56,553 bases of DNA from a virus (lineage: Duplodnaviria > Caudoviricetes): the IMG/VR virus record IMGVR_UViG_3300022074_000047, positions 1 to 56,553 of that record; one strand, written 5' to 3'. Of the stretch, positions 20,714 through 39,112 are shown in pieces. How positions within the stretch are numbered: position 1 is the stretch's first letter; the number at the start of each line of letters is the position of its first letter. Made by a program: the position numbers and the translations under genes. The notes beneath the pieces were generated by a model that was given only the letters and a program-made list of their open reading frames with translations, made no database searches and was not told the origin of the DNA.

Positions 20714-20964
20714 ATAGGAAAGACATACTAGCAAAAGCCGAGAAGATGATTAACGGTCCACGGGCCAAAGCCTACGGCGATGCTCACGAAAACCACAAAC
20801 GTATTGCCAAGATGTGGTCAGTTATACTGGAGAAAGAGGTAACCGTATCGCAAGTCTATCAATGCATGATAGCGGTCAAGCTGTCCCGCCTGATAGAAAC
20901 ACCAGACCATGAAGACAGTTGGCTCGATGTCTGTGGCTACGGCGCCCTTGGGGGAGAAAAATAA
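20710..20964 (+). CDS. DUF6378-like protein
   Basis: I.GPRA..YGD...N..RIA..WS...M..VK.SR...H.DSW.D..GY. Confidence 0.75.
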   Translation: MNRKDILAKAEKMINGPRAKAYGDAHENHKRIAKMWSVILEKEVTVSQVYQCMIAVKLSRLIETPDHEDSWLDVCGYGALGGEK

Positions 20965-22856
20965 TGGCTTTGCAACTCGCGTTTGATACGCCGAAGTCGG
21001 AATGGCTACCGCCAACCGAGCTCCCCAACATCTTTGAAGCCAAACAAATAGCCATAGATGTTGAAACACGCGATCCCAATATCAAAACACTCGGGCCGGG
21101 GTGGGCACGAAACGATGGCGAAGTGGTAGGTTACGCTGTTGCCGTCAGCGATTGGTCAGGATATATACCCATCCGTCATAAATACGGCGGTAATCTGGAC
21201 GAGCGCATTGTTAACAAATGGCTGAAGAAAGTCTTTGAGTGCCCCGCCGATAAAATCATGCACAATGCGCAGTACGATGCGGGATGGATACGGCGCATGG
21301 GCTTCACGCTCAACGGTCGGATCATCGATACCATGCTTATCGCGGCTCTACTGGACGAAAACCGCTTTAGCTACAGCCTGAACGCTCTGGCCTACGATCA
21401 TCTCGGTAAAGTAAAATCCGAAAAAGGACTGACAGAAGCCGCAAGAGGATTTGGACTGGACCCAAAAGCCGAGCTCTGGAAAATGCCTGCAATGTATGTG
21501 GGACCGTATGCCGAGGGAGATGCCGAGTTAACACTCGAACTTTGGAACTATCTATCAGGACAACTGGGCAAAGAGGACCTATGGCCCATCGCTAATCTCG
21601 AGCTCGATCTACTCCCGTGCCTGATTGATATGACATGGCGCGGTGTTCGGGTAGATCAGGAAAAAGTAGAGCGTACACGGAACTCTCTACTCAAGCGCGA
21701 GAAAGAGGTACTTAGCAACATTAAGAAACGTGTTGGCCATGACATCGAAATATGGGCTGCCGCCTCCATAGCGAAGGCCTTTGAGGCTCTCAGCATCGAA
21801 TACCCACGGACCGAGAAGGGCGCACCATCGTTCACGAAACAATTCCTGAGCGATCACAGTCACGAACTCCCGCAGTTAATTGTCCAAGCCCGTAACCTAA
21901 ACAAGACCTCGGGGACCTTTATCAATACAATTATGAAACATTGTCACTCCGATGGGCGCATACACAGCCACATAAACCAAATACGATCCGACGACGGCGG
22001 GACCGTATCAGGACGTATCTCCATGAATAACCCGAACCTACAACAGATCCCCGCAAGGGATCCTGAACTTGGTCCTATGATTCGCTCTCTGTTCCTCCCC
22101 GAAGAGGGCGAAAAATGGGCTGCGATTGACTTCTCGCAACAGGAACCACGGATCTTGGTTCACTATGCGTATGTCTATGGCAAAAGTAAGGGGCTTACTT
22201 TGGACGGTGTAGAAGAGTTTGTCCACGGCTATCGGAACAATCCCGACATGGACTTTCACACAATGGTTGCAGAAATGGCAAAGATACCACGTAAGCAAGC
22301 GAAAACAATAAACTTGGGCCTGATGTACGGTATGGGGGTCGGTAAAATGTCTGACCAACTAGATATCACGCTTGACGAAGCCAAGGACTTGGTCCGTCAA
22401 TACCATACACGGGTACCTTTTGTTAAGATGCTGATGACAGGCGTGCAAAACAGACTCAACGACAAGAGCAGTAGCGGTTCTATTCGGTCCCTGTTAGGAC
22501 GTAAGTGTCGGTTTGATCTGTGGGAGCCCGATACATTCGAGATGAACAAAGCGCTCCCGTACCGCGAAGCGGTGCAAGAGTATGGCGATACGACACGCCT
22601 AAAGCGTGCGTATACCTACAAGGCCCTGAATAGATTAATTCAGGCGTCAGCCGCTGATATGACCAAAAAAGCCATGATAGATATATATAAAACAGGCCGT
22701 ATACCGCTCATACAAATCCACGATGAGATAGCTATGTCGGTCAAAGACATGAAAGATGCAGAAACTGTTTCGCAGATGATGGAAACTGCGGTACAATTAG
22801 AAATACCGAGCAAGTGTGACATTGAAGTTGGCCCCGACTGGGGAACTGCTAAATAA
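20964..22856 (+). CDS. polA: DNA polymerase family A with 3'-5' exonuclease
   Basis: Exo motifs DVET, HNAQYD, YAEGD; polymerase motifs DFSQQEPR, KTINLGLMYG, IHDE; start moved to ATG 20964 (SD GGAG). Confidence 0.95.
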   Translation: MALQLAFDTPKSEWLPPTELPNIFEAKQIAIDVETRDPNIKTLGPGWARNDGEVVGYAVAVSDWSGYIPIRHKYGGNLDERIVNKWLKKVFECPADKIMHNAQYDAGWIRRMGFTLNGRIIDTMLIAALLDENRFSYSLNALAYDHLGKVKSEKGLTEAARGFGLDPKAELWKMPAMYVGPYAEGDAELTLELWNYLSGQLGKEDLWPIANLELDLLPCLIDMTWRGVRVDQEKVERTRNSLLKREKEVLSNIKKRVGHDIEIWAAASIAKAFEALSIEYPRTEKGAPSFTKQFLSDHSHELPQLIVQARNLNKTSGTFINTIMKHCHSDGRIHSHINQIRSDDGGTVSGRISMNNPNLQQIPARDPELGPMIRSLFLPEEGEKWAAIDFSQQEPRILVHYAYVYGKSKGLTLDGVEEFVHGYRNNPDMDFHTMVAEMAKIPRKQAKTINLGLMYGMGVGKMSDQLDITLDEAKDLVRQYHTRVPFVKMLMTGVQNRLNDKSSSGSIRSLLGRKCRFDLWEPDTFEMNKALPYREAVQEYGDTTRLKRAYTYKALNRLIQASAADMTKKAMIDIYKTGRIPLIQIHDEIAMSVKDMKDAETVSQMMETAVQLEIPSKCDIEVGPDWGTAK

Positions 22857-22899: not shown

Positions 22900-22924
22900 A
22901 GCCCCGCCAAGCGGGGCTTTTTTT
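22900..22924 (+). terminator. intrinsic terminator
   Basis: GCCCCGC-CAA-GCGGGGC followed by T7. Confidence 0.85.
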
Positions 22925-22925
22925 C

Positions 22926-22964
22926 TTGCATCTTTACATATTATCTTATATAGTCCTGTAAGAT
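22926..22964 (+). promoter_or_regulatory. promoter with overlapping inverted-repeat operator
   Basis: TTGCAT-N17-TATAGT; ATCTTATA-N6-TGTAAGAT inverted repeat across the -10. Confidence 0.7.
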
Positions 22965-22982
22965 ACTATATAAGGACACCTT

Positions 22983-23200: not shown

Positions 23201-23434
23201 ATGACACCTGATATTGTTTACTTTATTTTGTACCTGATAACCGTACCCGACATTGAGAGCGATCAACGGGCCATGCACCGTATTTACTTTCAAAGTGCGG
23301 ACCAATGCGAACATTACGCAGAAATGTTAGGCCAACAAAACGATCCTATTGTCGGAAAGAAAAACTGTGTTAAAGTAGATACATATCTCCCCGAGATTAG
23401 AATACCCTTACCCAAGCCCGAGTTTATGAAATGA
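23201..23434 (+). CDS. hypothetical protein with hydrophobic N-terminus and two Cys
   Basis: 77 aa, SD AGGAG. Confidence 0.6.
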   Translation: MTPDIVYFILYLITVPDIESDQRAMHRIYFQSADQCEHYAEMLGQQNDPIVGKKNCVKVDTYLPEIRIPLPKPEFMK

Positions 23435-23631
23435 AGTTAGAAGAGCTGTTTAACATTAATAATTTTCTTAAAAAACCAAACACGGACCACCAAATACGGC
23501 ACTTTAGTAGGGACATAATAGAAAAATTTCATCGAATGATACGCCGCAAAAAGAAGAAAGATATCGATTTTTCTAAAATTTTTGATGACGAAGAAACAAT
23601 TAAACGCATAAAACGAAAAAAAGACTTGTAA
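23431..23631 (+). CDS. basic hypothetical protein
   Basis: 66 aa, ATGA overlap. Confidence 0.45.
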   Translation: MKLEELFNINNFLKKPNTDHQIRHFSRDIIEKFHRMIRRKKKKDIDFSKIFDDEETIKRIKRKKDL

Positions 23632-23654
23632 AGTCTTATATAGTCGCGTATAAC
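23626..23654 (+). promoter_or_regulatory. candidate promoter of small RNA
   Basis: TTGTAA-N17-TATAAC with TCTTATA box in the spacer. Confidence 0.5.
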
Positions 23655-23659
23655 TACAT

Positions 23660-23729
23660 ACTGAGGGAAGTCATAGGCCCTCTCCCGTAGTTAAAGAAGA
23701 GCCCTCCAGAGATCTGGGGGGCTTTTTTT
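23660..23729 (+). ncRNA. candidate ~70-nt trans-acting small RNA
   Basis: No ORF between promoter and terminator; GAGGG/CCCTC hairpin, linker TCTCCCGTAGTTAAA, then terminator. Confidence 0.5.
23700..23729 (+). terminator. intrinsic terminator
   Basis: AGCCCTCCAG-AGAT-CTGGGGGGCT followed by T run. Confidence 0.85.
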
Positions 23730-23732
23730 GTG

Positions 23733-23774
23733 TTGACAGGCCATTTTATCTGTGATTATATGGGATTATGTCAA
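23733..23774 (+). promoter_or_regulatory. promoter with 16-bp box
   Basis: TTGACA-N17/18-(T)TATAT(G); TATGGGATTATGTCAA at 23759. Confidence 0.6.
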
Positions 23775-23790
23775 CTACAGGAGAAAACAT

Positions 23791-24141
23791 ATGACTAAAG
23801 TATGGATATTTAAATTTAGGGAAAGCGGTGACGAGGATGATGTGGTCGTGTTTGACTCTAAGCCGTCCCGAGAACAAATGGATGAGGTATTGTTAGATAA
23901 TCTCGATCAGTTGTTCTTTGATAACAAAACGCACCCCGATCAAGAACGGGCTAGAGAAAATGACGATGACTTTGAGTATCTCTATTACGAGGATCTTTGG
24001 GAGAGAGAAGTTCTTAGTGGTTCCGACGATAAAAAATGTCTGCAAGAAAAACTAGCGGAGGTGTATGAGATGGCCGCTAAGATAGAGCTTGATACAGCAC
24101 GGCTAATTAGTATGGCCGAAGATACATTGAGGAAAAGCTAA
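23791..24141 (+). CDS. acidic early hypothetical protein
   Basis: Start moved to ATG 23791 (SD AGGAG); very D/E-rich. Confidence 0.65.
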   Translation: MTKVWIFKFRESGDEDDVVVFDSKPSREQMDEVLLDNLDQLFFDNKTHPDQERARENDDDFEYLYYEDLWEREVLSGSDDKKCLQEKLAEVYEMAAKIELDTARLISMAEDTLRKS

Positions 24142-25913: not shown

Positions 25914-26100
25914 CGTATACGTCATCAAAGAAGTAGTCGGGCCTGACAAAAAGGTTCAGTACTATATAGAAGGGGCGGGCCACCCTATCACAAACAAGGT
26001 CGATAATATAAAAGACGCGGAGCAAATGCTCAAGAGACAAATTGAGTTCGGAGATGGCCGTTTCCGTAATTACTGGCATTTGTTGATCCCACCTATATGA
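25906..26100 (+). CDS. hypothetical protein
   Basis: 64 aa, TTG start with SD AAGGA. Confidence 0.5.
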   Translation: MPDVYVIKEVVGPDKKVQYYIEGAGHPITNKVDNIKDAEQMLKRQIEFGDGRFRNYWHLLIPPI

Positions 26101-26335
26101 CGTTCAGATATTTTTTTTTCTTAAACTTTTATAATATTGGCGGGATAGGCGGGATGGCGGGATAAACGGCCTGAAGTGCCTTATTTATATATAGAAGATC
26201 TATACCACTACTATAACGTTAGTGAAAACGGGGGTGGTATAGCTAGTTAATCGTCAAAATCTCTTATAGGGGTCTGAGAATTTTTTTTATAATTTTTTTT
26301 AGCTGAGTATATATAAGGGCTGAATAAACAATTAG
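26101..26335. other. non-coding origin-like region
   Basis: Three T tracts of 8-9 nt, three tandem GGCGGGAT(A), inverted repeat CTATACCAC/GTGGTATAG. Confidence 0.4.
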
Positions 26336-26337
26336 GG

Positions 26338-26367: not shown

Positions 26368-26396
26368 TGTCCGTATAACTACAATGGAGAAAGACT

Positions 26397-26729
26397 ATGG
26401 ACGAGATACGAAAAAAATATGACGAGGGAAAACTTTCCTTGGGAATGTGGGATTGTAGCTTTTATTTTGTTGATGGCGATGGAAATCAGCTATTGGATAA
26501 AAATGGAAAGGTTAGACTTTTTACCGCTGATGACCATGATTTTAGTTACATGGCGGATGGGGTGGAGTTTGATGAGCTCTCGGAAGCTGAACGTAACCCC
26601 GCTGAGGAAATTACTTCACTACTTAGTGATTTGAAAGATTGGTACGGCCGAGCAGATCAGGATCACCTTGGTCAGGGCGCCGATATAATTGAAGATATCC
26701 TTACGTTTTTTGAAAAAGGAGAGCAATAA
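26397..26729 (+). CDS. acidic early hypothetical protein
   Basis: 110 aa D/E-rich, SD GGAG. Confidence 0.65.
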   Translation: MDEIRKKYDEGKLSLGMWDCSFYFVDGDGNQLLDKNGKVRLFTADDHDFSYMADGVEFDELSEAERNPAEEITSLLSDLKDWYGRADQDHLGQGADIIEDILTFFEKGEQ

Positions 26730-26968
26730 TGAAATTTCTTGATAATAAACGTTTATGGCGCCAAAGTTTTGGGCACGAGGTTAAGCTTAAAAAGCTTTTG
26801 GAAAAGATAGAAATGTATTGTTTCTTTTCTATAGAGGATGCAGAACAATTTCTAAAAGATTTTCCTAATCATCCTGATAAGCTTGAGAGTAAAGCGCGGT
26901 TAGAGATCTGCCGAGGAATTTTGTCTATTATTGATAAGGAGAAATTAGATGGTAAAATACCTAACTAA
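26729..26968 (+). CDS. hypothetical protein
   Basis: 79 aa, TAATG coupling, SD AGGAG. Confidence 0.6.
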   Translation: MKFLDNKRLWRQSFGHEVKLKKLLEKIEMYCFFSIEDAEQFLKDFPNHPDKLESKARLEICRGILSIIDKEKLDGKIPN

Positions 26969-27233
26969 AGATTTAATCTTAAGACTTAATGAAAAAGCGG
27001 TGCGTTTAAATAAGAACCGCTCTATTCATCCTAATCATTATTCTGATCTTAATCTTAAAGAAGATATTAAATACCCCGTGGGAATGACGTTGCCTACGGG
27101 GCATATGGATCGGGAAATGAGAACGCAGATATATCTAGGCGAGGACAAGGGTAGTATTTGGCTTGATATTGAAATGAAAGATTTCACCAAATTGCCTAGT
27201 CAGGAGATAGATAATGAGAAAGGGGGTGAGTAG
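26949..27233 (+). CDS. hypothetical protein
   Basis: 94 aa, SD AAGGAG. Confidence 0.6.
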   Translation: MVKYLTKDLILRLNEKAVRLNKNRSIHPNHYSDLNLKEDIKYPVGMTLPTGHMDREMRTQIYLGEDKGSIWLDIEMKDFTKLPSQEIDNEKGGE

Positions 27234-27333
27234 ATATTTTTATTTTTAGAATTATAGGGTGGTTGCTTTACGGCAAAGATTATGATCGATTGCAGAGAAA
27301 AGTAAATGAGCCGAAGCGCCGACGCTGAGAATG

Positions 27334-27364
27334 AGCCCCGCCACTTGACGGGGCTTTTTCTTTT
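27334..27364 (+). terminator. intrinsic terminator containing the next -35
   Basis: AGCCCCG-CCACTTGA-CGGGGCT plus T run. Confidence 0.8.
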
Positions 27365-27386
27365 GTCTAGTATGGGATATTGTCAA
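27345..27386 (+). promoter_or_regulatory. promoter with 16-bp box
   Basis: TTGACG-N17-TAGTAT; TATGGGATATTGTCAA at 27371. Confidence 0.65.
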
Positions 27387-27408
27387 TTAACTACATAGGA
27401 GAAAAATT

Positions 27409-27666
27409 ATGAAACGTAGTACATATAACAAACCGCACAACAAATTGCGATTTATTACCCCCGATCAAGTAGCAGAAACATGGGATGGAGTTAACAAAGA
27501 TCTTTATTCCGCTCTTTGGCGTAAAGGCGTTAAGGCTATGCGACAACCTAACGAGTTTGATCACAGAGCCGAATACCTTTTTGAAAACTCTGTGGCGTCT
27601 TTATGGGATGAATTTTCAAAAGACGAAAAATTTGAATTAAATAAACTATGTCAGGCGGGTCATTAA
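27409..27666 (+). CDS. early hypothetical protein
   Basis: 85 aa, SD AGGAG. Confidence 0.65.
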   Translation: MKRSTYNKPHNKLRFITPDQVAETWDGVNKDLYSALWRKGVKAMRQPNEFDHRAEYLFENSVASLWDEFSKDEKFELNKLCQAGH

Positions 27667-27667
27667 A

Positions 27668-27970
27668 ATGAAAAACATTAAACAAAAAGTTTTTATGATA
27701 CCCTTTAGCAAAGATGACATTTTAGTAATGTTATCTGTTATAGCGGAATTTAACACGGCCGTCGCGCGGGGCGAAGCGCAACATAATATAACCCATGAAA
27801 AAGAAACAATACGGGGCTTAGTAAATAGGTTATTCCCGTATCAGCGGGCTTTAGTTGAAGATGATCTTGATCTTTTAATTGATGCACAGCTAATGCATAC
27901 AGCGGGCACCGACGAATGGGCCAAGAACTTTTTCAAAGGGCAAGCGCGCAAAAAAGTAAAGCAGAGTTGA
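27668..27970 (+). CDS. early hypothetical protein
   Basis: 100 aa directly after the previous gene. Confidence 0.55.
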   Translation: MKNIKQKVFMIPFSKDDILVMLSVIAEFNTAVARGEAQHNITHEKETIRGLVNRLFPYQRALVEDDLDLLIDAQLMHTAGTDEWAKNFFKGQARKKVKQS

Positions 27971-27994
27971 CTTTATCTTATATAAATGTATTCT
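27967..27994 (+). promoter_or_regulatory. sigma70-type promoter with inverted 16-bp box
   Basis: TTGACT-N16-TATTCT; TTGACTTTATCTTATA. Confidence 0.6.
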
Positions 27995-28049
27995 TATGGG
28001 GCGGGGCAATTCCGCCCCGTTTTATTTTAACTACAAATAAGGAAAAACT

Positions 28050-29177
28050 ATGACAATAGATAACAATGAAATGAAGCTTACCCAGTTGATGAAAAGGGTT
28101 CAGGAAGAAGCAAGCCGCAAGGCCGATTATATTGTTCCCGCTAATCATATGCAGAAAAGAACAATAGAAGACAATGACGGGAAGATGAAGCCCCAGTTGA
28201 TAGTCGAACAGCGGGGCGGAGAACCTACCCTTGTTATGGATTTTAACGACGTTTCATTTAATCAATACGCGGTTTACAATGGTATTGAGAGCCGTACAGC
28301 GCGACGCCTACAAGATCAAGCCCCGAGTGAATTTGACGCGCTGTTAAATAGGTTGCATTCTCAAGACAATAATAACCGAATGCTTAGAACGTTTGACAAT
28401 GGCCCGTCTTCTACTCTTAGAGCTAATTTATCTGACAAATTTAAAACGTTTGATAATTACGATTTTTTAGAAGCTTCTATTCCCGCGCTTTTAGATAACG
28501 ATCAAGCCCCCGAGATTATGCAAGCCGATTACACCGAAAAAAGAATGTATATGCGCTTCAAGTTTAACAAGCAAACGGGAGAGGGTGCTAACGTCGGTGA
28601 TTTAATGGCAAATGGTATTGGTTTTTCTAATAGTGAAACGGGGCACGGGTCGATTGCTGTATGGCAGAATTTTTGGACTTTGGCGTGCACAAATGGAATG
28701 CAGACCGATAACAGAAGCAGAAGCGCGCATATAACAAGCGCCCGTGAGAGCGACGTTTACGGCGTTTTATCGCAAGAAGCAAAAGACGCTGATAACAAGG
28801 CTATGGCCCTAAAGCTTCGCGATCTAGTAAGAAGCTACTCAAGCCGTGAAAGCTTCGATGACGTATTGCAAAAAATGCGGTTAGCGGGTGCGGACGTTGC
28901 CGAGGGCATAGAGCCCGTTGAGCTTGCCAGTAACGCGGGCCGAGTTTTAGCCCTTACCAAACAGGAAACAAGCGGGCTGTTAAATGGTCTTATTTCAACA
29001 ATAGGGCAAGCGGGGTATGAACGCGATAAACCATTGACCCGCGCGACGTTAATAAACGCCGTGACGGCGTGCCAACACAAGGCCGAAAAAGATGACGTTG
29101 ATTTATGGCAACGGCGCGGGGGGCAAGTTTTAAATATGCGGTCGTCGGATTGGTCGCGGGTTAAGGCCGTCGCGTAA
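28050..29177 (+). CDS. DUF932-family (phage/plasmid) protein
   Basis: GIGFSNSETGHGSIAV....TLACTNGM signature followed by RSAH. Confidence 0.75.
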   Translation: MTIDNNEMKLTQLMKRVQEEASRKADYIVPANHMQKRTIEDNDGKMKPQLIVEQRGGEPTLVMDFNDVSFNQYAVYNGIESRTARRLQDQAPSEFDALLNRLHSQDNNNRMLRTFDNGPSSTLRANLSDKFKTFDNYDFLEASIPALLDNDQAPEIMQADYTEKRMYMRFKFNKQTGEGANVGDLMANGIGFSNSETGHGSIAVWQNFWTLACTNGMQTDNRSRSAHITSARESDVYGVLSQEAKDADNKAMALKLRDLVRSYSSRESFDDVLQKMRLAGADVAEGIEPVELASNAGRVLALTKQETSGLLNGLISTIGQAGYERDKPLTRATLINAVTACQHKAEKDDVDLWQRRGGQVLNMRSSDWSRVKAVA

Positions 29178-29231
29178 ATTCCAGACCCGCCACGCGGGCG
29201 GGCTGGCCTATTGTAAAAATATCACTAAATC

Positions 29232-29259
29232 GGGCGGGTGTTTACATCCGCCCTTTTTT
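29232..29259 (+). terminator. intrinsic terminator containing the next -35 (TTTACA)
   Basis: GGGCGGGTG-TTTA-CATCCGCCC-T6; followed by TATATA and TATAAGATAATGTCAA. Confidence 0.8.
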
Positions 29260-29304
29260 ATGTATATATATAAGATAATGTCAATAATACGGGAATTTTA
29301 AAAA

Positions 29305-30024
29305 ATGGTTTTATTAGTTAATGAAATGTCTACGGGCAAAAAAACGCGGGGGCTTGCGATAACATATAGGGCGGGCGGGGGCAATAAGTTTGGATCTTGC
29401 CCCGCATCTTGCAAGCTTAATGCAAGCGGGCGCGGATCGGAAAAGATCGATCTAGAATATACCCGCGTTTTATATGGGTTTAAACCCGTCGGCGGGTTTG
29501 CGTTTACGTTTTCGCATTTCGACCCGTCGCAATGGTTTAATTTGATAGCCCCCGAGAAAAAAAAGGCCGTGATAAATTATAGCGCCGATCTATGGTCTAA
29601 GGCCGTGAAAGCTTTTAAAAATAATATTCCAACTGTTTTTGTCGTTGCCCAAAGTTATTGGAGTGAAAACGCCTTTAAAAATAAGGAACGCGACGGCGTT
29701 TTGGTTGTTCGGTGCCCTGAAGAATATAATAGTGATAAAGTAAGCTGTTTAAATTGTGGCGGTGAAAAGGGGCCGTTATGCGCCCGCCCTGATCGCAATT
29801 TTATTATAGCCTTTACGGCGCACGGGAACCAAAAAAAGAAAATAAACAACGGCGCGCGCGGGGGCTGTTATGCCGACGGGGGTAACGTCAATATACATTG
29901 GAAGCGCTTGGCCGATAAACCGCAAGAAAAAACAGACTCGGAAACATTGCGTAAATTTATCAAAACTATTTCGCCCCGCCGTATTCTTCGCCATCATATC
30001 GCGGGCGATATCGGGCAAGAATAA
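29305..30024 (+). CDS. gp88/DUF7227-like Cys-rich protein, apparently permuted
   Basis: KKTRG, CPASC, FTFSH, RCP..SCLNC..LC..R..IIAFTAHG, GCYA, RHHIAGD. Confidence 0.65.
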   Translation: MVLLVNEMSTGKKTRGLAITYRAGGGNKFGSCPASCKLNASGRGSEKIDLEYTRVLYGFKPVGGFAFTFSHFDPSQWFNLIAPEKKKAVINYSADLWSKAVKAFKNNIPTVFVVAQSYWSENAFKNKERDGVLVVRCPEEYNSDKVSCLNCGGEKGPLCARPDRNFIIAFTAHGNQKKKINNGARGGCYADGGNVNIHWKRLADKPQEKTDSETLRKFIKTISPRRILRHHIAGDIGQE

Positions 30025-30046
30025 AGCCCGCCCATAGCGACCAAAT

Positions 30047-30071
30047 AAAGCCCGCTCACGCGGGCTTTTTT
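30047..30071 (+). terminator. intrinsic terminator
   Basis: AAAGCCCGC-TCAC-GCGGGCTTTTTT. Confidence 0.85.
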
Positions 30072-30079
30072 ATTTTGGG

Positions 30080-30107
30080 TTGTTTATATCTCATTTTTTC
30101 TTATACT
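30080..30107 (+). promoter_or_regulatory. sigma70-type promoter
   Basis: TTGTTT-N16-TATACT with TCTTATA box. Confidence 0.55.
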
Positions 30108-30155
30108 AGGGCAAGCGGTGCAATGAAGCCCGCTTTTTAACTATAGGAAAAAACT

Positions 30156-30341
30156 ATGAATGAAGATCTTTTATCAAAATATTTTTATAAAGAATTTGCG
30201 GAGTATGCCAATTTGGATATTCCGACGTATTCAAAGCTTTTATTGCACGCGGGCGTTGTTGACGCCTTGGCCGATAAAGATATGGAACGTTGCAAGGTTC
30301 TTGTGGATGAATTTAAAAGGGGGGCTAATTATGCGACTTAA
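30156..30341 (+). CDS. early hypothetical protein
   Basis: 61 aa, SD AGGA. Confidence 0.6.
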   Translation: MNEDLLSKYFYKEFAEYANLDIPTYSKLLLHAGVVDALADKDMERCKVLVDEFKRGANYAT

Positions 30342-30555
30342 TAAGATCCAATTAAACGCCTTGAAAAGGTTATACGATAGAGAAAAGCCCGCTTTAAATA
30401 TTTACGTTGCAGGTATTCTTAAAGACCGCGTTTCAATAAGCTTTTTAAATTTTCGGCGGGAATGCTACCCCGAAATTGGCGCCCGTGATACGGCCTTAAT
30501 AGTTCATAGGGGCGTCACGTTTGGAATAGAGCCCGACGGCCATATCCATACATAG
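30331..30555 (+). CDS. early hypothetical protein
   Basis: Start moved to ATG 30331; SFLNFRR...GIEPDGHIHT C-terminal motif seen in small phage early proteins. Confidence 0.65.
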   Translation: MRLNKIQLNALKRLYDREKPALNIYVAGILKDRVSISFLNFRRECYPEIGARDTALIVHRGVTFGIEPDGHIHT

Positions 30556-30576
30556 AGCCCGCCCATGGCCGAGATT

Positions 30577-30603
30577 AAGCCCGCTTCGCGCGGGCTTTTT
30601 TTT
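30577..30603 (+). terminator. intrinsic terminator ending the early region
   Basis: AAGCCCGC-TTCGC-GCGGGC plus T8. Confidence 0.85.
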
Positions 30604-30682
30604 GTTCGCTATTTCCAGTTAAATCCGCAACGGCCCGCCGTCCGCGTGCGATCGTAAACCTACGAGCCCCGCGACCCATGGC

Positions 30683-30722
30683 CCGAGATCCGCCGAGATC
30701 CGCCGAGATCCGCCGAGATCCA
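30683..30722. repeat. tandem 10-bp repeat CCGAGATCCG x4
   Basis: Units at 30683, 30693, 30703, 30713 (last ends in A); dispersed copies at 30783 and 30887. Confidence 0.95.
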
Positions 30723-30988
30723 CGGCCCGCGATCCTAGACCCGCCACGTGACGCGGCTGCACCCTTTTTTAAGATCCGCGACCCGAGATCCGCGACGGCT
30801 GCAGCGGATCCGCGAACCATGGCCCCCCGCCCAAGGTTAAAAATTTTCTTCTAGGGGCCCCCGCATATCGGGTCAATTAACGGGGCCCGAGATCCAAAAA
30901 TCGCGATAAAATGACAACGGCCCGGTGTTTTGCAAGCGTTAGCTTGCGCCATGTTTTTCACGAATAATCATACAAAAAATCGTATGAA

Positions 30989-31004
30989 TGTTTCACGTGA
31001 AACA
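30989..31004. promoter_or_regulatory. parS: parS site (chromosomal ParB consensus)
   Basis: TGTTTCACGTGAAACA, exact 16-bp consensus; palindrome extends to 20 bp (30987-31006). Confidence 0.85.
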
Positions 31005-31098
31005 TTGCCTAATTATTGTGCAGAAAAAAGGTTCTTGTTAACTGCCTAAAAAACGTGCATATTATTCGTGTTTGTTAACCATCAACCGAGGTCCGAGA

Positions 31099-31719
31099 AT
31101 GAGGAAGCGCAGAGTAGGCAAAACGGGAATACGCCAAGAGACTCGTGGTCGAAAACCCGCCACCATAAAAACCCCTTTGACACGAAAGCAGGAGCTGTTT
31201 GTCCGCGAGCTTGTCAGCAAGGATGGGCAGATAACTATGCGCGAAGCGGCAGAGAATGCCGGGTATAGTGCAACGAGTGCCCATACGCGAGCGTATGAGT
31301 TAACGAACCAACATATCTCGCCTCATGTGGTTCATGCGATAAGAGAGTACCGTCGTGCTTTGGATGAGAAATATAGTATTACGTTCTCACGACACGTGCG
31401 GGATTTGCAGCGTATTCGGGACGAGGCATTAGCGAATGGTGCGTACTCGGCAGCGGTGCAGGCGGAGTTTCGCCGTGGTATGGCGCAGGGTGATATATAT
31501 GTAAGTAAATCGGAGATACGACACGGGAGCATAGACAGTATGTCTAAGGAAGAAGTTATGAAAGCATTGAAAGAGATAAAGGAGAGTTATGCCCCAGTCA
31601 CAATCGACATCACCCCAGAAGAGGATAACGATAGCCGTGAAGAAGGAGAGCGGCTTTTACAAACAAGTGAAGGAAGCGGCACAGAGAGTAAGTCGAAAGC
31701 TGTCGCTAACGCGAATTGA
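31099..31719 (+). CDS. terS: terminase small subunit
   Basis: LTRKQELFV...AAENAGYS..SA...AYEL HTH signature; upstream of TerL; start taken at ATG 31099. Confidence 0.85.
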   Translation: MRKRRVGKTGIRQETRGRKPATIKTPLTRKQELFVRELVSKDGQITMREAAENAGYSATSAHTRAYELTNQHISPHVVHAIREYRRALDEKYSITFSRHVRDLQRIRDEALANGAYSAAVQAEFRRGMAQGDIYVSKSEIRHGSIDSMSKEEVMKALKEIKESYAPVTIDITPEEDNDSREEGERLLQTSEGSGTESKSKAVANAN

Positions 31720-32047
31720 AAACTGGGTCGGAGCAGGAATCCCAGACGTCTTGCTCTGTGATATCCATGGTTGTTTTCATTTTGTTGAGCTCAAGTTTAC
31801 GACGACGAATAAAGTAGATCTGCGCCCGTCGCAGGTAGCGTGGCTCACGAAACACAAACACGCTTCGTGTTGGATATTAATTAAGAAACAGGCAAAGCCG
31901 TCCGAGCGAGCAGAATTATTTTTGTTTAAGGCGGAAGATGCGATAGATTTGAAGATGGATGGGTTGAAAGATAAGAAGCCGGAGTTTCATTGTATGCAGC
32001 CGTTTCGTTGGGACGATATGTTTTTTAAAATCGCAGGGGCCCCCTGA
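31589..32047 (+). CDS. PD-(D/E)xK nuclease (Holliday junction resolvase/VRR-NUC-like)
   Basis: RIEN...GIPD.....FVELK...LRPSQVAW; true start may be GTG 31637. Confidence 0.8.
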   Translation: MPQSQSTSPQKRITIAVKKESGFYKQVKEAAQRVSRKLSLTRIENWVGAGIPDVLLCDIHGCFHFVELKFTTTNKVDLRPSQVAWLTKHKHASCWILIKKQAKPSERAELFLFKAEDAIDLKMDGLKDKKPEFHCMQPFRWDDMFFKIAGAP

Positions 32048-33492
32048 TGGATGTTTCGGAGCAGGAGGCCAAGCTTACGCTGCGACTGGCACAATTAGAA
32101 AAACACGAAAGGTGTCAGGAAGATTTTTTAATTTTTGTAAAAAATATGTGGCCGGATTTTATTGCCGGTCGGCACCATAAGATTATTGCCGAGAAGTTAG
32201 AGCGTGTGGCCAAGGGCGAGCTGAAGCGTTTGATTATCAATATGGCGCCAAGACATACGAAGTCGGAGTTTGCAAGCTTCTTGTTTCCGGCGTGGATGAT
32301 GGGCCGTAATCCAAAGATGAAGATTATTCAGGCGACGCACACCACGGAGTTGGCCGTGAACTTTGGACGTAAGACCAAGAACCTTATTGATAGTGATGAG
32401 TACAAGGATATCTTTCCGACGGTGAATTTGTCCGCCGACAGTAAAGCATCCGGTCGTTGGGACACGACATCGGGGGGTATGTACTATGCGGTGGGGGTTG
32501 GTTCCAACTTAGCGGGTCGTGGTGGAGACTTGGTGATTATAGATGACCCGCACTCGGAGCAGACGGCGATGTCTAATTCGGGTTTTGATGATGCGTGGGA
32601 CTGGTATACTGGGGGCCCCCGACAGAGACTACAGCCGGGAGGTAGTATTGTTTTGGTACAGACCCGGTGGTCCGAGAAGGATATGACGGGACAGTTGATG
32701 CGTGCGATGGCGAAGGATGAATTAGCGGACCAGTGGGAAGTTGTAGAGTTACCGGCGATCTTTACGGATGGCAGTCCCTGTTGGCCGGAGTTCTGGAGCC
32801 TCGAGGATTTAACGGCGGTGAAGGCGTCGATACCCCCTAGTAAATGGAATGCGCAGTATCAGCAGAATCCGACGGGTGAGGAGAACGCAATTATACCGCG
32901 TGAGTGGTGGCAGAAGTGGGAGAAGGAGAGTATTCCCAATCTGGAGTATGTTATTCAGAGTTACGATACGGCGTTCACGAAGAAGGAGACATCGGACTAT
33001 AGCGCGATTACTACATGGGGTGTTTTTTATCCCGAAGAAGCGGGGGGTCCCCCGGCGTTGATCCTTCTTGATAGTCAGAAGGATAGGTGGGACTTTCCTG
33101 AGTTGAAGCAGGTAGCGTTGGAGCAATATAAGTACTGGGAGCCGGATACGATTATAATAGAGGCGAAGGCGACGGGGCTGCCCTTGACCCACGAACTACG
33201 GAACATGGGTATACCTGTTGTCAACTTTACACCGAGTAAGGGTAATGATAAGGTGACGCGCGTGCACTCTGTATCGGTTCTTTTTGAAGCAGGCATGGTG
33301 TACGCACCAGACACGAAGTTTGCGGATGAGATGATAGAGGAGGTTGCGGCTTTTCCAAATGGGGAGTATGATGACCTTGTGGATAGTATGACACAGGCTT
33401 TGATGCGGTATCGTCAGGGCAACTTTGTGCAGCTACCAAGTGACGATTGGGAAGAAGAGGATAACAACGTGCAAGTAAAAGCGTACTACTGA
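32047..33492 (+). CDS. terL: terminase large subunit
   Basis: APRHTKS Walker A variant, IIDDP Walker B, QTRW, SYDTA, DDLVDS nuclease motifs. Confidence 0.95.
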   Translation: MDVSEQEAKLTLRLAQLEKHERCQEDFLIFVKNMWPDFIAGRHHKIIAEKLERVAKGELKRLIINMAPRHTKSEFASFLFPAWMMGRNPKMKIIQATHTTELAVNFGRKTKNLIDSDEYKDIFPTVNLSADSKASGRWDTTSGGMYYAVGVGSNLAGRGGDLVIIDDPHSEQTAMSNSGFDDAWDWYTGGPRQRLQPGGSIVLVQTRWSEKDMTGQLMRAMAKDELADQWEVVELPAIFTDGSPCWPEFWSLEDLTAVKASIPPSKWNAQYQQNPTGEENAIIPREWWQKWEKESIPNLEYVIQSYDTAFTKKETSDYSAITTWGVFYPEEAGGPPALILLDSQKDRWDFPELKQVALEQYKYWEPDTIIIEAKATGLPLTHELRNMGIPVVNFTPSKGNDKVTRVHSVSVLFEAGMVYAPDTKFADEMIEEVAAFPNGEYDDLVDSMTQALMRYRQGNFVQLPSDDWEEEDNNVQVKAYY

Positions 33493-35105
33493 TGACGGAT
33501 CTGTTTACGGAACGCGATAAGAAAAAAGCCAAGGCTTTTGTAAAAGGAGCAAATACGGGGATTGCTAATCTTTTAGGTTTTCCTGTTGACATGGTTAACA
33601 TGGCGCCTCTTCTTGTAAATCTTTTACCGGGCAAGCAGGGCATGAAGCCTTTTTCTGAAGATCCGGTTGGTGGGTCCCAGACGTTTAAGAATTTAATGGC
33701 AGCGGGTAATGTGGGCACGTATAAAGATGTGCAATCAATTCCTGAAGATGAGTATGGGGCGGGTGTTGCGGGTATGTTATCGAGTGAAGCTTTGCTATCT
33801 TTAGTTCCTGCCAGTAAGTTGATACAACAGTTGACCAAAGGGAAAAAGGTTAATTTACCGCAACCCAGTGCGGGTGGCGTAGATTTATCAAAGAGAGATT
33901 TTCTTAAAAAAGCTCCTGTTGCTGTAGCGGGGGCAGCCATGGTTCCCTCTGTTTTAAGAGAAATTGGTGAGGTCATACCTACGACAGCCACAACTAAAGC
34001 GGCAAAAGTTGGTTTAAAAGGCGTTATAGGTAGTGCCGCAGCAAAAGCAAACAAGTTACGTGATTTGTATTTTGGCACAGAGAAGGCCTTAAAAGGCAAA
34101 GGCGATCCGGTAGATCAATTATCGCAATCTTTGAAACGTAGTGAAGAGATGGACGCTGTAACTACGTCAATGAATAAAGAGCTTTCAGATTTTGTAAAAG
34201 GCAAAAATTACGATGATTTTATGAAATTAAAAGATGAAGAGCTTATTGCATTAGGGGAGATACAGCAAGACATAACACACGTTATGCGCACAGGGACTAC
34301 TCCAAAGGATGTAATATATTCTGGAGCTCCTCTAAGGGAAAAAACTGTTTCCGAGGCTTTAGGCAAGGCAATAGATAATCGTGGACTAAGGGGCAAGATC
34401 ACGGACCTTAGTAGGGCAAGAATGTTTGAATCAATTGCGGCTAAAAGAGAGGTGCGAAAAAGAGCCGGTTTCGTTGGTAAGAGCGGGATTGATTTGCCCT
34501 CAAGCATTATTCCAAAAATGTTCCCCTCTGGCACTACAGCGAAAACGACAAGTCTTTTTCCAACAGAGGCTAAGAAGGGTAAGCAGTTATTGATTGTGTC
34601 CTGTGGTAGTACTAAATGCCCGGACGTTGGTAACATGAAAGCATTAGATAGATATTTAGGCCCTATATTTCAATCAATAAAAAAGGCGGGGGTGCCTGAA
34701 AACGTAGATGTCGCTATATTGTCCGCGAAACACGGACTTATACGTGCTGACACTCCGATAGAGAACTACGATCAATTAATGACAAAAGATAAAGTAAAGG
34801 ATTTTTTAAGTAATCCGGACGAGATAAGTAAGATTGCGGAAACCATGCAGGGCTACGATAAGGTATTAGTGCAGGGTGGTGATAATTACAAAAACGTGAT
34901 TAAGTCCGCAGCCGGAGATATACCTTTTACAGAAGTGCCCAAGGGTCGTGGGATTGGAGATCAACGTAGTTTTGTCGCACAATTTTTAAAAGATCAGGCG
35001 AAACCCATGGCTAAAGGCGGTATCGCAGGCTTGTCTGACATAGCACGCGATATGTTCAAGGGTCCAAAAGGTATTGGCGCTTATCAATCGTTTATGGTAG
35101 GGTAA
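33492..35105 (+). CDS. multidomain protein with C-terminal DUF6884/YaaA-like domain, probably virion-associated
   Basis: LLIVSCGSTK...ALDRYLG..F...ILSAKHGLI...IENYDQLM; internal SKRDFLK plus hydrophobic stretch; MAKGGI tail. Confidence 0.6.
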   Translation: MTDLFTERDKKKAKAFVKGANTGIANLLGFPVDMVNMAPLLVNLLPGKQGMKPFSEDPVGGSQTFKNLMAAGNVGTYKDVQSIPEDEYGAGVAGMLSSEALLSLVPASKLIQQLTKGKKVNLPQPSAGGVDLSKRDFLKKAPVAVAGAAMVPSVLREIGEVIPTTATTKAAKVGLKGVIGSAAAKANKLRDLYFGTEKALKGKGDPVDQLSQSLKRSEEMDAVTTSMNKELSDFVKGKNYDDFMKLKDEELIALGEIQQDITHVMRTGTTPKDVIYSGAPLREKTVSEALGKAIDNRGLRGKITDLSRARMFESIAAKREVRKRAGFVGKSGIDLPSSIIPKMFPSGTTAKTTSLFPTEAKKGKQLLIVSCGSTKCPDVGNMKALDRYLGPIFQSIKKAGVPENVDVAILSAKHGLIRADTPIENYDQLMTKDKVKDFLSNPDEISKIAETMQGYDKVLVQGGDNYKNVIKSAAGDIPFTEVPKGRGIGDQRSFVAQFLKDQAKPMAKGGIAGLSDIARDMFKGPKGIGAYQSFMVG

Positions 35106-35120
35106 CCAAAAGGAGTCACT

Positions 35121-37526
35121 ATGGCTATAGAAAAAGGAATACCATCACAGCTTGATCCAGAAGATCTGGCAGCAGAAGTAGAGCTAGAGGTCCCCGGTAG
35201 TATGGAGCCGATAGCGATGGTCGATATGGATGTTGAAGCGGAGAACATGGACATAGAGATTACCGCCGAGGACGACGGTGGTGTGACCGTGGACTTTGAG
35301 CCGACCGATCAAAGAGGCACAAGTGATGATTTTTATTCTAATTTAGCCGAAGAAATGCCCGATAGAGAGCTTGGACGTATAGCAGGCGAGCTTTTGGGGG
35401 AGTATGACGCGAATAAAGCGGGTCGGCAGGAGTGGGAAGATGCCTATGCTAATGGTTTAGAGCTGTTAGGCTTTAGTTATGAAGAGAGAACACAGCCGTT
35501 TAGGGGTTCTTCTGGTGTAACACACCCGTTATTGGCCGAAGCGGCAACACAATTTCAGGCACAGGCCTTTAATGAGCTACTTCCGTCGTCGGGTCCCGTC
35601 AGAACTACGATAGTTGGTGCCGAAACACGCGATAAACAGCAGCAATCACAGCGTGTACGCCAGTTTATGAACTATTACATCACAAATGTAATGGAAGAGT
35701 ACACACCAGAGCTCGATCAGATGCTTTTTTATCTACCGTTGGCCGGTTCAACGTTTAAAAAAGTGTATTATGATGAAAATATGGGCAGAGCGGTGTCTAA
35801 ATTTATACCGGCAGAGCATTTGGTGGTGCCTTATGAGACTTCGGACCTTGAAACGTGCCCAAATATTACGCAAACGCTGCGAATATCGCTAAATGAGCTC
35901 AGAAAGAAACAAATATCGGGCTTTTATCTCGATATTCCGGTACTTCCGGGGCAGGCAGAAGGTGATTCTGTAACCGATGAAATTAATAAAATAGACGGAA
36001 TGTCGCCAAATCAGATAGATTATGACTGTACTTTGCTCGAATGTCATGTCGATTTAGACATTGAGGGCTATGAAGAAACAGACGAGGATGGGGAGCCCAC
36101 AGGTATAAAAGTACCGTATGTGGTTACAATTAGTCAGGATAACGGGCAGATATTGTCCATACGCCGTAATTATCGTGAAGATGATGATATGAAGCGCAAG
36201 ATACAATATTTTGTGCACTATAAGTTTCTACCCGGTTTTGGTTTCTATGGGTTGGGACTTATTCACACGATTGGCGGGTTGTCACGAACCGCCACAGCGG
36301 CTCTGAGGCAGCTAATCGACGCCGGTACGTTGTCCAACCTTCCTGCGGGTTTCAAGGCCCGTGGACTACGGATCCGAGACGACGATGATCCGCTTCAGCC
36401 CGGTGAGTTCCGCGATGTGGATGCTCCCGGAGGGGCTATTCGTGACAGCCTTATGCCGCTGCCATTTAAAGGTCCCGATCAAACCTTATTCCAGTTATTG
36501 GGATTTGTTGTTGATGCAGGACGTAGGTTTGCCACGATTACGGATATGAAGGTTGGCGATGGTAATCAGCAGGCGGCTGTCGGTACGACTATAGCGTTGT
36601 TGGAACAGGGCTCACGGGTGATGAGTGCGGTGCATAAGAGACTGCATTATGCGATGCGGTTGGAGTTTAAGATCCTGTCACGAGTGATGAGCGAGAGTTT
36701 ACCCGGTGAATACCCTTATGCGGTAGAGGGTGAGGACAGTGCTATAAAAGCGACTGACTTTGACGATAGAGTAGATGTTGTGCCTGTATCGGACCCAAAT
36801 GTCTTTTCACAGGCACAAAGGATTGCGTTGGCGCAAACGAAGCTACAGTTAGCGGGTGCTGCACCTGATTTACATAATATGTATGAAGTGTACCGTGATA
36901 TGTATGATGCGCTTGGGGTTAAGGATACCGATAGAATTATGAAGCGTGTGCCCGATGAGGAGCCTACACCCAAAGATCCGGCGCAGGAGAATATAGATGT
37001 TATGGATATGGTGACGTTGAAGGCGTTTCAGGGGCAGGACCATGAGTCCCACATTATGGCGCATTTAGTGTTTGGAGCGTCACCTATGATTGGTGGTATG
37101 CCGGCTTTAGCTATGGCTCTACAGAAGCACTGTATTGAACACGTGCAGATACAAGCAGAAGAAATGGCGATGATGGAGATGCGTAAGCAGGGACCGATGG
37201 CGCCGGAACAGCAGGAGATGCTGATGGAAAGTATTAAGGCTAAGTTTGTAGCGCAAGGTATGCAGCAGTTGAGACAACTATCACAACAGGCCTCGGGTCA
37301 GGGACCAGATCCTCTGGTGCAGCTCAAGGAGAAGGAGTTGCAGCTTAGAGCACAGGCAGAACAGAACGATGCGCAGAACGATCAGGCAAAACTTAATCTT
37401 GATGCACAGAATCAGAGATTACGTGCCGATCAGTTCCAACAGCGGTTGTCGAGTCAGGAACGACAGACAAGTGCACGTATAGATGCAGCGATGCAAAGAG
37501 AATTTATTAAAAGCAAAAGTAAGTAA
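35121..37526 (+). CDS. portal protein
   Basis: 801 aa after TerL; HPLLAEA..FQA, FYGLG, P22-like Q-rich C-terminal coiled coil. Confidence 0.85.
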   Translation: MAIEKGIPSQLDPEDLAAEVELEVPGSMEPIAMVDMDVEAENMDIEITAEDDGGVTVDFEPTDQRGTSDDFYSNLAEEMPDRELGRIAGELLGEYDANKAGRQEWEDAYANGLELLGFSYEERTQPFRGSSGVTHPLLAEAATQFQAQAFNELLPSSGPVRTTIVGAETRDKQQQSQRVRQFMNYYITNVMEEYTPELDQMLFYLPLAGSTFKKVYYDENMGRAVSKFIPAEHLVVPYETSDLETCPNITQTLRISLNELRKKQISGFYLDIPVLPGQAEGDSVTDEINKIDGMSPNQIDYDCTLLECHVDLDIEGYEETDEDGEPTGIKVPYVVTISQDNGQILSIRRNYREDDDMKRKIQYFVHYKFLPGFGFYGLGLIHTIGGLSRTATAALRQLIDAGTLSNLPAGFKARGLRIRDDDDPLQPGEFRDVDAPGGAIRDSLMPLPFKGPDQTLFQLLGFVVDAGRRFATITDMKVGDGNQQAAVGTTIALLEQGSRVMSAVHKRLHYAMRLEFKILSRVMSESLPGEYPYAVEGEDSAIKATDFDDRVDVVPVSDPNVFSQAQRIALAQTKLQLAGAAPDLHNMYEVYRDMYDALGVKDTDRIMKRVPDEEPTPKDPAQENIDVMDMVTLKAFQGQDHESHIMAHLVFGASPMIGGMPALAMALQKHCIEHVQIQAEEMAMMEMRKQGPMAPEQQEMLMESIKAKFVAQGMQQLRQLSQQASGQGPDPLVQLKEKELQLRAQAEQNDAQNDQAKLNLDAQNQRLRADQFQQRLSSQERQTSARIDAAMQREFIKSKSK

Positions 37527-37549
37527 CCTATGAAACTACGGGAAAAACT

Positions 37550-38964: not shown

Positions 38965-39112
38965 TGTACCGACACTTGTTGATCGGGGCCGACAGAAAAA
39001 GAAAAGTAGTGCCGGCGATCAAGAGTTAAGTGAATTGGAAAAACTTGCGTATCCAAAAATGCCCACAATTATTAGTGAGGGCAAGAAAAAGAAGAAGAAG
39101 GTAGTGGTATAA
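38945..39112 (+). CDS. 55-aa basic peptide, not in ORF track
   Basis: MTISRGSVPTLVDRGRQ...GKKKKKKVVV*; SD GAGGAG; TAATG-coupled to the holin. Confidence 0.55.
   Translation: MTISRGSVPTLVDRGRQKKKSSAGDQELSELEKLAYPKMPTIISEGKKKKKKVVV

Follow-up and report, generated by a model that had tools for sequence, protein, structure and literature searches.

Enterobacterial-type small RNAs are built from a 5′ hairpin, a single-stranded seed and a Rho-independent terminator, and they reach several targets through a short conserved seed that pairs at the ribosome-binding site (RBS). To our knowledge, almost all phage small RNAs characterised so far come from temperate coliphages or prophages and act on one phage operon or on host genes. 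The c4 RNA of phages P1 and P7 is described as a small structured RNA located upstream of its target, short exposed stretches of which pair around the RBS and block translation (PMC12197685), and lambda PreS is reported to be a phage-encoded small RNA that regulates host genes (bioRxiv 10.1101/2024.10.31.621285). In T4-like phages, the PeSLs are presented as conserved terminator/promoter modules of hyperplastic regions that serve as recombination points for unrelated genes (PMC4122927, PMC2839356), and the T7 gene 10 enhancer is described as a short element placed directly 5′ of the Shine-Dalgarno (SD) sequence in a phage leader (PMC8748333). The locus analysed here lies at positions 23626-23729 of IMG/VR virus record IMGVR_UViG_3300022074_000047, a whole virus record of 56,553 bp (the window in what follows) with a completeness estimate of 97%. 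It is a promoter-to-terminator unit free of open reading frames (ORFs), and its predicted product is a small RNA of about 70 nt. Several of the phage's genes have leaders to which the exposed stretch of this RNA is the reverse complement, and the RNA therefore probably turns down all of these genes at once.

The likeness to c4 is that of a structured phage RNA with an exposed stretch, here predicted to pair at the RBS. However, c4 serves temperate-phage immunity and a single operon (ant), whereas the unit described here belongs to a phage with a lytic-type gene set and faces several dispersed leaders. A c4-type RNA is processed from the operon transcript that also contains its target, and two of its loops pair with two target sites. 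The unit described here instead has a promoter and a terminator of its own and is separated from the next gene by a further promoter; its loop does not pair with the AUG region, as a second site, better than expected by chance; and the gene set comprises a polymerase, a primase and helicases, no integrase or repressor having been found among the 29 window proteins scanned. We take a c4 family to exist in Rfam; at E values up to 10, no Rfam family, any for c4 included, was found at the locus apart from terminator-like matches. With enterobacterial-type small RNAs the unit shares both the modular anatomy and the multi-target logic. PreS is reported to target host genes, whereas the predicted targets here are the phage's own mRNAs, reached through a motif on a mobile leader cassette. 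A terminator-plus-promoter module flanks unrelated genes in a variable region, as is reported for PeSLs, by analogy and not by homology; PeSLs are not known to carry a small-RNA gene or a matching leader motif, whereas the cassette described here has both. The T7 gene 10 enhancer has a position like that of our motif, but is described as A/U-rich and as acting on the ribosome, and is not known to have an antisense partner RNA. In the literature searched in full text, no family of this kind was found described for small RNAs of marine or lytic phages. The unit is not a member of any curated family tested (Rfam), and it is set apart by the lytic-type marine phage that carries it, the mobile promoter-leader cassette, the dispersed own leaders and the joint change of seed and leader.

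The unit and the promoter that follows it are made up of these elements:

23626-23631, plus strand: -35 hexamer TTGTAA, read from the sequence, with an A-rich tract before it.
23649-23654, plus strand: putative -10 hexamer TATAAC, 17 nt after the -35.
23660-23729, plus strand: predicted small RNA of about 70 nt, based on its fold, the lack of an ORF and covariance model R1.
23663-23667 and 23678-23682, plus strand: 5′ hairpin P1 (GAGGG/CCCTC), with a 10-nt loop containing the invariant UCAUAGG.
23681-23695, plus strand: linker TCTCCCGTAGTTAAA, read from the sequence.
23683-23693, plus strand: single-stranded seed UCCCGUAGUUA, invariant in 35 of 35 distinct versions.
23701-23729, plus strand: intrinsic terminator as folded, with a 9-bp GC-rich stem (23701-23709/23714-23722), loop AGAU and U7 (23723-23729).
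23733-23761, plus strand: next promoter TTGACA-17-TTATAT, directly 3′ of the terminator.

The promoter-to-terminator unit lacking an ORF, which a preliminary description of this DNA had proposed, was recovered with every element in its place; no ORF of at least 20 aa lies within 23626-23729. Transcription is predicted to start near 23660. The 71-nt RNA folds at -33.5 kcal/mol (z = -3.86), and none of 200 shuffled sequences is as stable. Covariance model R1 finds a single copy in the window, at 93.5 bits. A consensus scan of the window listed neither the promoter of the unit nor its terminator, and support for them comes therefore from fold, conservation and covariation. The -35 is present as CTTGTAA in all 66 distinct versions of the cassette collected from relatives, in which the -10 position reads TATAAC, TATATT, TATCTT, TATGTT, TATTTT or TATAAA. 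When the whole window was searched with Rfam at gathering thresholds, no family was found at the small-RNA locus; at E values up to 10 the best matches within 23550-23850 scored 12.7-22.5 bits, against thresholds of 46.9-90, and were terminator-like only. Two coding readings were discarded: the mini-ORF ATG-AAA-GGG-TTG-TCA-TAG in the 5′ part occurs in some variants and is not kept in the window, and the minus-strand ORF that would begin at the antisense ATG is 6 codons long in the window. It had also been suggested that read-through transcripts mask the seed through an AACTAC at 23652. The hexamer is there, but it is not conserved, relatives having AACTGG, AACTAT, ATTAGT, ATTAAC or AACTTT in its place, and masking of this kind was rejected.

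The predicted targets carry a leader in which (A)ACUAY precedes the SD purines. Duplex energies are given below together with ranks by full-length cofold gain, a measure that charges for opening the RNA's own structure, among 76 start regions:

23773-23793, plus strand: leader AACUAC-a-GGAGA...AUG (AACTACAGGAGAAAACATATG) of the adjacent 116-aa gene; duplex -15.1 kcal/mol, cofold gain -12.0, rank 2/76.
26376-26399, plus strand: leader UAACUAC-aau-GGAGA...AUG of a 110-aa gene; duplex -14.6 kcal/mol, cofold rank 19/76.
27387-27411, plus strand: leader UUAACUAC-aua-GGAGA...AUG of an 85-aa gene; duplex -15.5 kcal/mol, cofold rank 3/76.
28026-28052, plus strand: leader UUUAACUAC-aaauaa-GGA...AUG of a 375-aa gene, after a terminator-like hairpin; cofold rank 10/76.
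29288-29307, plus strand: leader UACGGGA...AUG of the DUF7227 gene (239 aa), a partial site; cofold rank 11/76.
30136-30162, plus strand: leader UUUAACUAU-a-GGA...AUG of a 61- or 131-aa ORF; cofold ranks 16 and 18/76.
37534-37552, plus strand: the best site, AACUACGGGA, at the SD of a 167-aa gene after the portal gene; 10/10 matched, duplex -17.0 kcal/mol, rank 1/76.

The start codons of these predicted targets lie at 23791, 26397, 27409, 28050, 29305, 30156 and 37550. The six leaders named in the preliminary description, said to have AACTA 16-21 nt before the ATG, are all present, at measured distances of 18, 20, 20, 21, 17 and 16 nt, and so is the partial TACGGGA reported at 29288. When the pattern AACTAY-N0-6-GGA-N5-12-ATG was searched on both strands, 7 matches were obtained against 0.84 ± 1.0 in 100 shuffles, none of which reached 7. 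Six of the matches are those same leaders and the seventh is the reverse complement of the RNA core (23672-23692); the core is therefore the antisense image of a whole leader, its ATG included, and 18 of 23 bases align in register between it and leader 23773-23795. Stretches of at least 7 contiguous bases complementary to the linker occur at 37 plus-strand sites, 6 of which fall in start-region windows accounting for 4.6% of the sequence (p = 0.007, binomial test).

A permutation test was performed in which the anti-SD part of the linker was kept fixed and GUAGUUA was reordered in 209 ways, with a threshold of -13 kcal/mol. The real seed reaches this threshold at 7, 8, 7 and 7 start regions in the window and in G001, G002 and G003 (three relatives at 82-92% nucleotide identity), respectively, whereas the permuted seeds do so at 3.6, 2.9, 2.7 and 2.3 on average. 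Permutations that equal the real seed make up a fraction of 0.024, 0, 0.005 and 0, the real order of GUAGUUA thus beating 97.6-100% of them. Upon ranking start regions by full-length cofold gain, a check of the kind that the preliminary description had called for, the six leaders take places 1, 2, 3, 10, 18 and 19 of 76, a favourable outcome that is partly circular because they had been chosen for complementarity. About 6-7 of about 75 start regions carry the motif, one of them that of a late-region gene after the portal. Judged from the sequence, the motif tracks the start codon and not the promoter: it follows the -10 at a variable distance, stands after a hairpin at 28026 and 30136, where the proposed constancy of its distance to the start codon despite an intervening hairpin was seen, and occurs at 37534 without a preceding promoter. 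A 15-nt stretch identical to leader AACTACAGGAGAAAA is also found at 5189-5203, within a 479-aa gene (4377-5816), and no start codon follows it.

The unit is widespread among related marine sequences. An exact 22-mer of the core was found in 23 viral contigs, and a degenerate core was recovered from 59 stretches of marine metagenomes; a scan of 185,579 bacterial and archaeal genomes, made for sequence identity and not for targets, found it in none. In all, units were collected from at least 104 marine viral or metagenomic stretches, comprising 66 distinct 220-nt versions and 35 distinct RNA sequences. Additional searches were anchored not on the core but on the promoter, or on the terminator plus the next promoter, and brought in variant cores; in the units so obtained the blocks UCAUAGG and UCCCGUAGUUA are intact and the middle of the core is variable. 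No variation at all was seen in the loop UCAUAGG or in UCCCGUAGUUA among the 35 distinct RNA sequences, an invariance that partly reflects how the metagenome search was set up, but that the anchored searches did not impose. Conservation of the seed, one of the checks suggested beforehand, accordingly extends to the versions found by anchor.

Structure is conserved together with sequence. In the alignment of the 35 sequences, 90.1% of the hairpin and terminator cells are paired, against 31-68% in slid controls, and for the terminator the figure is 99.7%. The covariation score is 0.163 against 0.097 ± 0.007, no shuffle out of 500 being as high. Double changes occur at three pairs: 11:28 (AU 29, CG 4, other 2) and 12:27 (GC 29, AU 4, CG 2) in P1, and 55:64 (CG 28, UA 7) in the terminator. 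On this comparative evidence the unit is a conserved, structured RNA gene.

Our reading of the locus as an antisense RNA was decided by what deeper relatives carry. We surveyed the best 80 loci with a related polymerase (99-76% identity), a polymerase common to at least 599 contigs. R1 gives 8 strong matches and about 20 weaker plus-strand matches at the same genomic position in these 80 loci, and a screen for seed plus terminator finds the unit in 39 of them. Where at least 2 kb follow the polymerase, the unit is present in 31 of 49 loci, or in 33 of 49 if L245 and L247, found by R1, are counted, and in these 33 it lies 0.4-2.5 kb downstream of the polymerase gene. Relatives with only 76-82% polymerase identity have the unit in the same genomic place with a different hairpin and the seed kept; at least four other 5′ hairpins and one form without a hairpin were recorded, and the exposed YCCGUAGU is always retained. 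Leaders of the deeper relatives are nearer to a perfect complement (e.g., cttatatAACTACGGGAGataaaaATG), and 39 of 335 start regions in 28 loci form at least 8 contiguous pairs with the seed of their own locus.

Seed and leader change together in these relatives. UCCCGUA seeds (21 loci) are accompanied by 24 distinct UACGGGAG leaders and by no UACGGAG, CUCCGUA seeds (9 loci) by 3 UACGGAG leaders and by no UACGGGAG, without a single crossed case (Fisher p = 3.4e-4, with no correction for phylogeny or leader duplication). Between UCCCGUA and CUCCGUA two neighbouring positions have swapped places, and the leaders show the matching swap. Opposite CUUACGGAGUGC or UUUACGGAGUAC stands a third seed, GUGCUCCGUAGG, with 12 contiguous pairs of which 3 are G-U, and in L259 a GUAA in the seed faces UUAC in two leaders. 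Leaders of DUF7227 orthologues (14 distinct versions) keep some complement of the seed, and do so through different parts of it (UACGGGA, AACACGGGAG, UAACUAUGGAG, AACUACGGAG). The covariation of seed and leaders in related genomes, which had been named as a test, was thus obtained between lineages, in the two main seed classes as well as with the third seed. A diverged lineage (L263, L265, L276, L277, L279, L281, L286 and L288) has hairpin GAACAUG...CAUGUUC, seed UCUCCGUAGUU and a terminator, after which comes a conserved gene with N-terminus MADMIFVNGL or MENQKVFVDGL; to judge by complementarity, the seed could pair there with the start-codon region.

What follows the unit also argues for a module that moves. 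Among the 66 distinct versions, a TTGAC promoter stands after the terminator in every one, and in 64 the adjacent leader reads AACTA[C/T/A], 0-1 nt, then GGAG or GGAA. The genes behind it begin with 25 different N-terminal hexapeptides, corresponding to about 14 gene kinds by our reading. In these alignments the RNA gene, the following promoter and the leader appear as one mobile regulatory cassette. An invertible segment between seed and adjacent leader was considered and rejected, the orientation being the same in 66 of 66 versions and no recombinase having been found among the 29 proteins scanned. Terminator-plus-promoter composites occur elsewhere in the window, at 22900-22975, 27333-27373, 27967-28020, 29232-29284 and 30047-30107. 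In some of them the -10 of the promoter lies only 1-3 nt before the hairpin, so that their own transcripts would lack the full stem and read-through from upstream would terminate.

Taking these data together, we consider it fairly probable that the unit encodes a trans-acting antisense small RNA that, by placing its seed on their AACUAY-SD stretch, reduces the translation of several phage mRNAs. From its own sigma-70-type promoter, 23660-23729 would yield a trans-acting RNA of about 70 nt, with a scaffold hairpin, the seed UCCCGUAGUUA and an intrinsic terminator. The seed would pair with (A)ACUAY and the SD purines 16-21 nt before several phage start codons, cover the RBS and cause a coordinated drop in translation of the gene set. 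Most of the targets would be cistrons that come first behind a promoter of the variable region; a further one would be a gene that follows the portal. Different genes may recombine in behind the cassette, and a new gene would therefore inherit both the promoter and the control by the small RNA. The unit has its own promoter and terminator and no ORF, carries a conserved single-stranded seed between structured modules, and shows RBS complementarity above chance that is maintained in evolution (by counts uncorrected for phylogeny). The sequences themselves show the anatomy, the conservation, the structural covariation, more complementarity at start regions than chance would give, and seeds and leaders that change jointly between lineages; that a discrete RNA species is made, that it pairs in the cell, that the effect is repression, and when it occurs, is what we infer. 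The preliminary description had one RNA shutting off a whole early-gene set; comparative tests support its core idea, one antisense RNA against a shared leader motif, and the words shut-off, early and whole set belong to what we infer.

The locus would be of interest on several counts. It represents a small-RNA family conserved in an abundant group of uncultured marine phages. If our reading is correct, a lytic phage would have a simple RNA mechanism for regulating its variable, promoter-proximal genes in concert, and the shuffling of genes by regulatory cassettes would be linked to post-transcriptional control. The parts are compact enough for reporter assays, the seed being about 11 nt and the leader about 12 nt. 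A further and more doubtful proposal, which we put forward tentatively, is that of a portable regulon, in which the cassette and leader-only copies, acting as recombination joints, wire captured genes into an RNA-controlled programme. Lineage-specific cross-immunity might then be possible, because seed and leader are shared among co-circulating relatives and change together between lineages: the same RNA could silence early genes of a superinfecting relative, an RNA-based exclusion in virulent marine phages.

Several results weigh against an antisense RNA acting on these leaders. The statistics within the window are modest, and the six leaders had been picked for complementarity; the hexamer AACTAC on its own gives a weak signal, being present in 5 of 75 start regions (p = 4.7e-4, not corrected for the 4096 hexamers), and the start regions at 20964, 23201, 5816 and 7063 score like some of the leaders. 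Pairing of the loop UCAUAG with CUAUGA at start codons is not above chance, the combination of loop and start-codon flank ranking 13 of 256 (exact) or 42 of 256 (at least 3 of 4 flank positions) in the window. Of the 66 window-clade versions, 14 have an anti-SD part that is no longer intact (CUC to CUA, GUA or GGA), and in these the duplex with the adjacent leader drops to -10.4 kcal/mol. The adjacent leader has no motif in 2 of 66 window-clade versions, nor in the deeper relatives L257, L264 and L315. The counts of joint change are not phylogenetically independent, and a protein binding double-stranded DNA would predict them too. Pairing energies with own and other seeds (-13.5 vs. -13.1) do not differ significantly (permutation p = 0.18), and tolerance of G-U over A-C (17 vs. 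10, with 11 ties) is not significant either (p = 0.12). In the diverged L263-type lineage the terminator is directly followed by SD and AACUAUG, with no promoter between them, and the gene there would therefore be reachable only by read-through, so that the unit could act in cis. Finally, the promoter of the unit is below consensus and was missed by the consensus scan. Libraries labelled as RNA yielded three short contigs, at 23428-23644, 23690-23827 and 23852-24104, each of which covers the unit at most in part.

It could be argued that the small RNA is real but has been selected for host transcripts or other RNA, its likeness to the leaders being incidental or the relic of an inverted copy. 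We regard this as unlikely, although an invariant host target would account for a seed so deeply conserved on different scaffolds, some adjacent leaders are devoid of the motif, and known phage small RNAs such as lambda PreS, as reported (bioRxiv 10.1101/2024.10.31.621285), act on host genes. A relic would be compatible with a core that, as an antisense image, matches a complete leader in register at 18 of 23 bases and with the nature of their differences, mostly A/G transitions, runs reaching 16-17 if A-C is allowed, as fits an inverted duplication. It would not lead one to expect lineage-specific helix extensions, and under either version the joint change of seed and leader motifs between lineages speaks in the opposite direction. 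Nor does any bacterial genome hold the core, though that search tested identity and not targets; the word concerned at host start regions would be UAACUACGGGA. As a target, 16S rRNA is hardly credible. The seed (23680-23688) is complementary to 9 bases, CTACGGGAG, of E. coli rrsH at 342-350 (L318), a universally conserved stretch of 16S rRNA, with a duplex of -17.7 kcal/mol; 4.9% of shuffled seeds match equally well, and the family-wide GUAGU fits rRNA only through CUAC. We also consider it improbable that the unit serves chiefly in cis, as a transcribed leader or attenuator for the gene downstream, with the short terminated RNA arising as a by-product, like the short promoter-proximal transcripts of lambdoid late operons. 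The L263-type arrangement, with SD and ATG right after the terminator, would suit this proposal, and a phage transcript that is short, terminated and functions as a small RNA has been reported (PMC7547250). In the window clade, however, the TTGAC promoter follows the terminator in 66 of 66 versions, the downstream gene being therefore independent of read-through, and the distant copies of the motif (26376-37534) are out of reach in cis.

Two further explanations do without antisense pairing, and to each of them we assign only a slight chance. If the motif were a double-stranded DNA site for a phage or host regulator near the starts of transcription units, one copy of it being inverted inside the small unit, all copies would co-vary between lineages as they do, and the comparison of G-U with A-C given above shows no significant preference for RNA pairing. 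Such a site would not be expected to hold its distance to the start codon and overlap the SD instead of the promoter, to occur at 37534 without a promoter, or to have its inverted copy always within the single-stranded segment that joins two covarying hairpins, in a unit free of ORFs and bounded by a terminator; and helices of 12-15 pairs in types II and VI need at least 3 G-U pairs. Alternatively, AACUAY might be a mere translational enhancer, or an inherited piece of a duplicated leader cassette, to which the small RNA is unrelated. The motif does stand directly 5′ of the SD, as is described for the T7 enhancer (PMC8748333), and cassettes are mobile, as reported for PeSLs (PMC4122927). The leaders with an upstream AACTAY also tend to be those with an ACT before the ATG (4 of 7 and 5; p = 1.4e-4, Fisher test), these leaders being therefore copies of one module. 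Neither version explains why an exact antisense copy exists in a conserved non-coding RNA, why seed and leader change jointly, or why orthologous leaders are complementary through different parts of the seed (UACGGGA vs. UAACUAUGGAG).

The antisense reading can also be followed at the site at 37534, far from the unit. In G001-G003, AACTACGGGAAAA(A/T)CTATG is kept although the sequence just upstream differs. Sites of this type were found in 19 of 80 loci encoding the 167-aa protein, in at least four upstream contexts, and ten records without the site, two of them 100% complete, gave no small-RNA match; weak R1 matches in site-less records (15.6 and 9.9 bits) align the terminator only. Among the 5-mers preceding start codons, AACTA has index 5-47 in four RNA-bearing genomes and 125-152 in three near-complete relatives without the RNA. 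Both co-occurrences, of site and of AACTA with the RNA, are confounded by relatedness. The 167-aa protein itself (37550-38053) has a C-terminal membrane helix and matches phrog_32327 (function unknown). Its homologues occur in at least 599 viral contigs, behind at least five different upstream genes, and a holin-like gene (39112-39507, phrog_3427) lies about 1 kb downstream.

Nearly all genes of the 56,553-bp record are on the plus strand. PHROG matches in the window include helicases, primase, a family-A DNA polymerase (20919-22856), small and large terminase, portal, major head protein and a holin-like protein. The gene set is lytic-type, and no integrase, repressor or recombinase turned up among the 29 window proteins scanned. 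By polymerase, the nearest phage records are DSL-LC04, 023Pt_psg01 and HTVC023P, of marine type, at 50-56% amino-acid identity; in the stretches examined these contain neither the unit nor the leader motif, and a megablast of the window against the phage collection gave no match. The unit lies in the stretch from 22.9 to 31 kb, which extends from the polymerase to the small terminase and has small genes of unknown function and, between them, terminator-like hairpins and sigma-70-like promoters; 31 terminator-like hairpins were found, where 17.8 ± 4.0 would be expected. A comparison of the window with G001-G003 shows a mosaic early region. No tRNA or tmRNA genes were found in the window.

Other features of the window may be mentioned. 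Its only Rfam match is a Mu-gpT-DE RNA at 43789-43841 on the plus strand (65.9 bits, gathering score 49), between the major-head-protein gene (42809-43717) and the next gene (43839-44459), with an AACTAC at 43784, just 5′ of the match. A non-coding stretch of about 240 nt (26100-26337) contains three direct repeats of GGCGGGAT (26140-26165) followed by AT-rich runs, upstream of a promoter TTGACA-18-TATAGT at 26338, and might be an origin or a regulator-binding site. At 30560-30920 there is a GC-rich repeat field, with four tandem copies of CCGAGATCCG (30683-30721) and related 20-nt repeats; it adjoins, on the upstream side, the small-terminase gene (31099-31719), and could be a packaging or replication site. 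The end of the record (51200-56553) is occupied by about ten small genes (78-175 aa) with a near-identical start region, cacGGAGActtggcataATG, at 52074, 52487, 55412 and 55906, which look like a paralogous tandem family.

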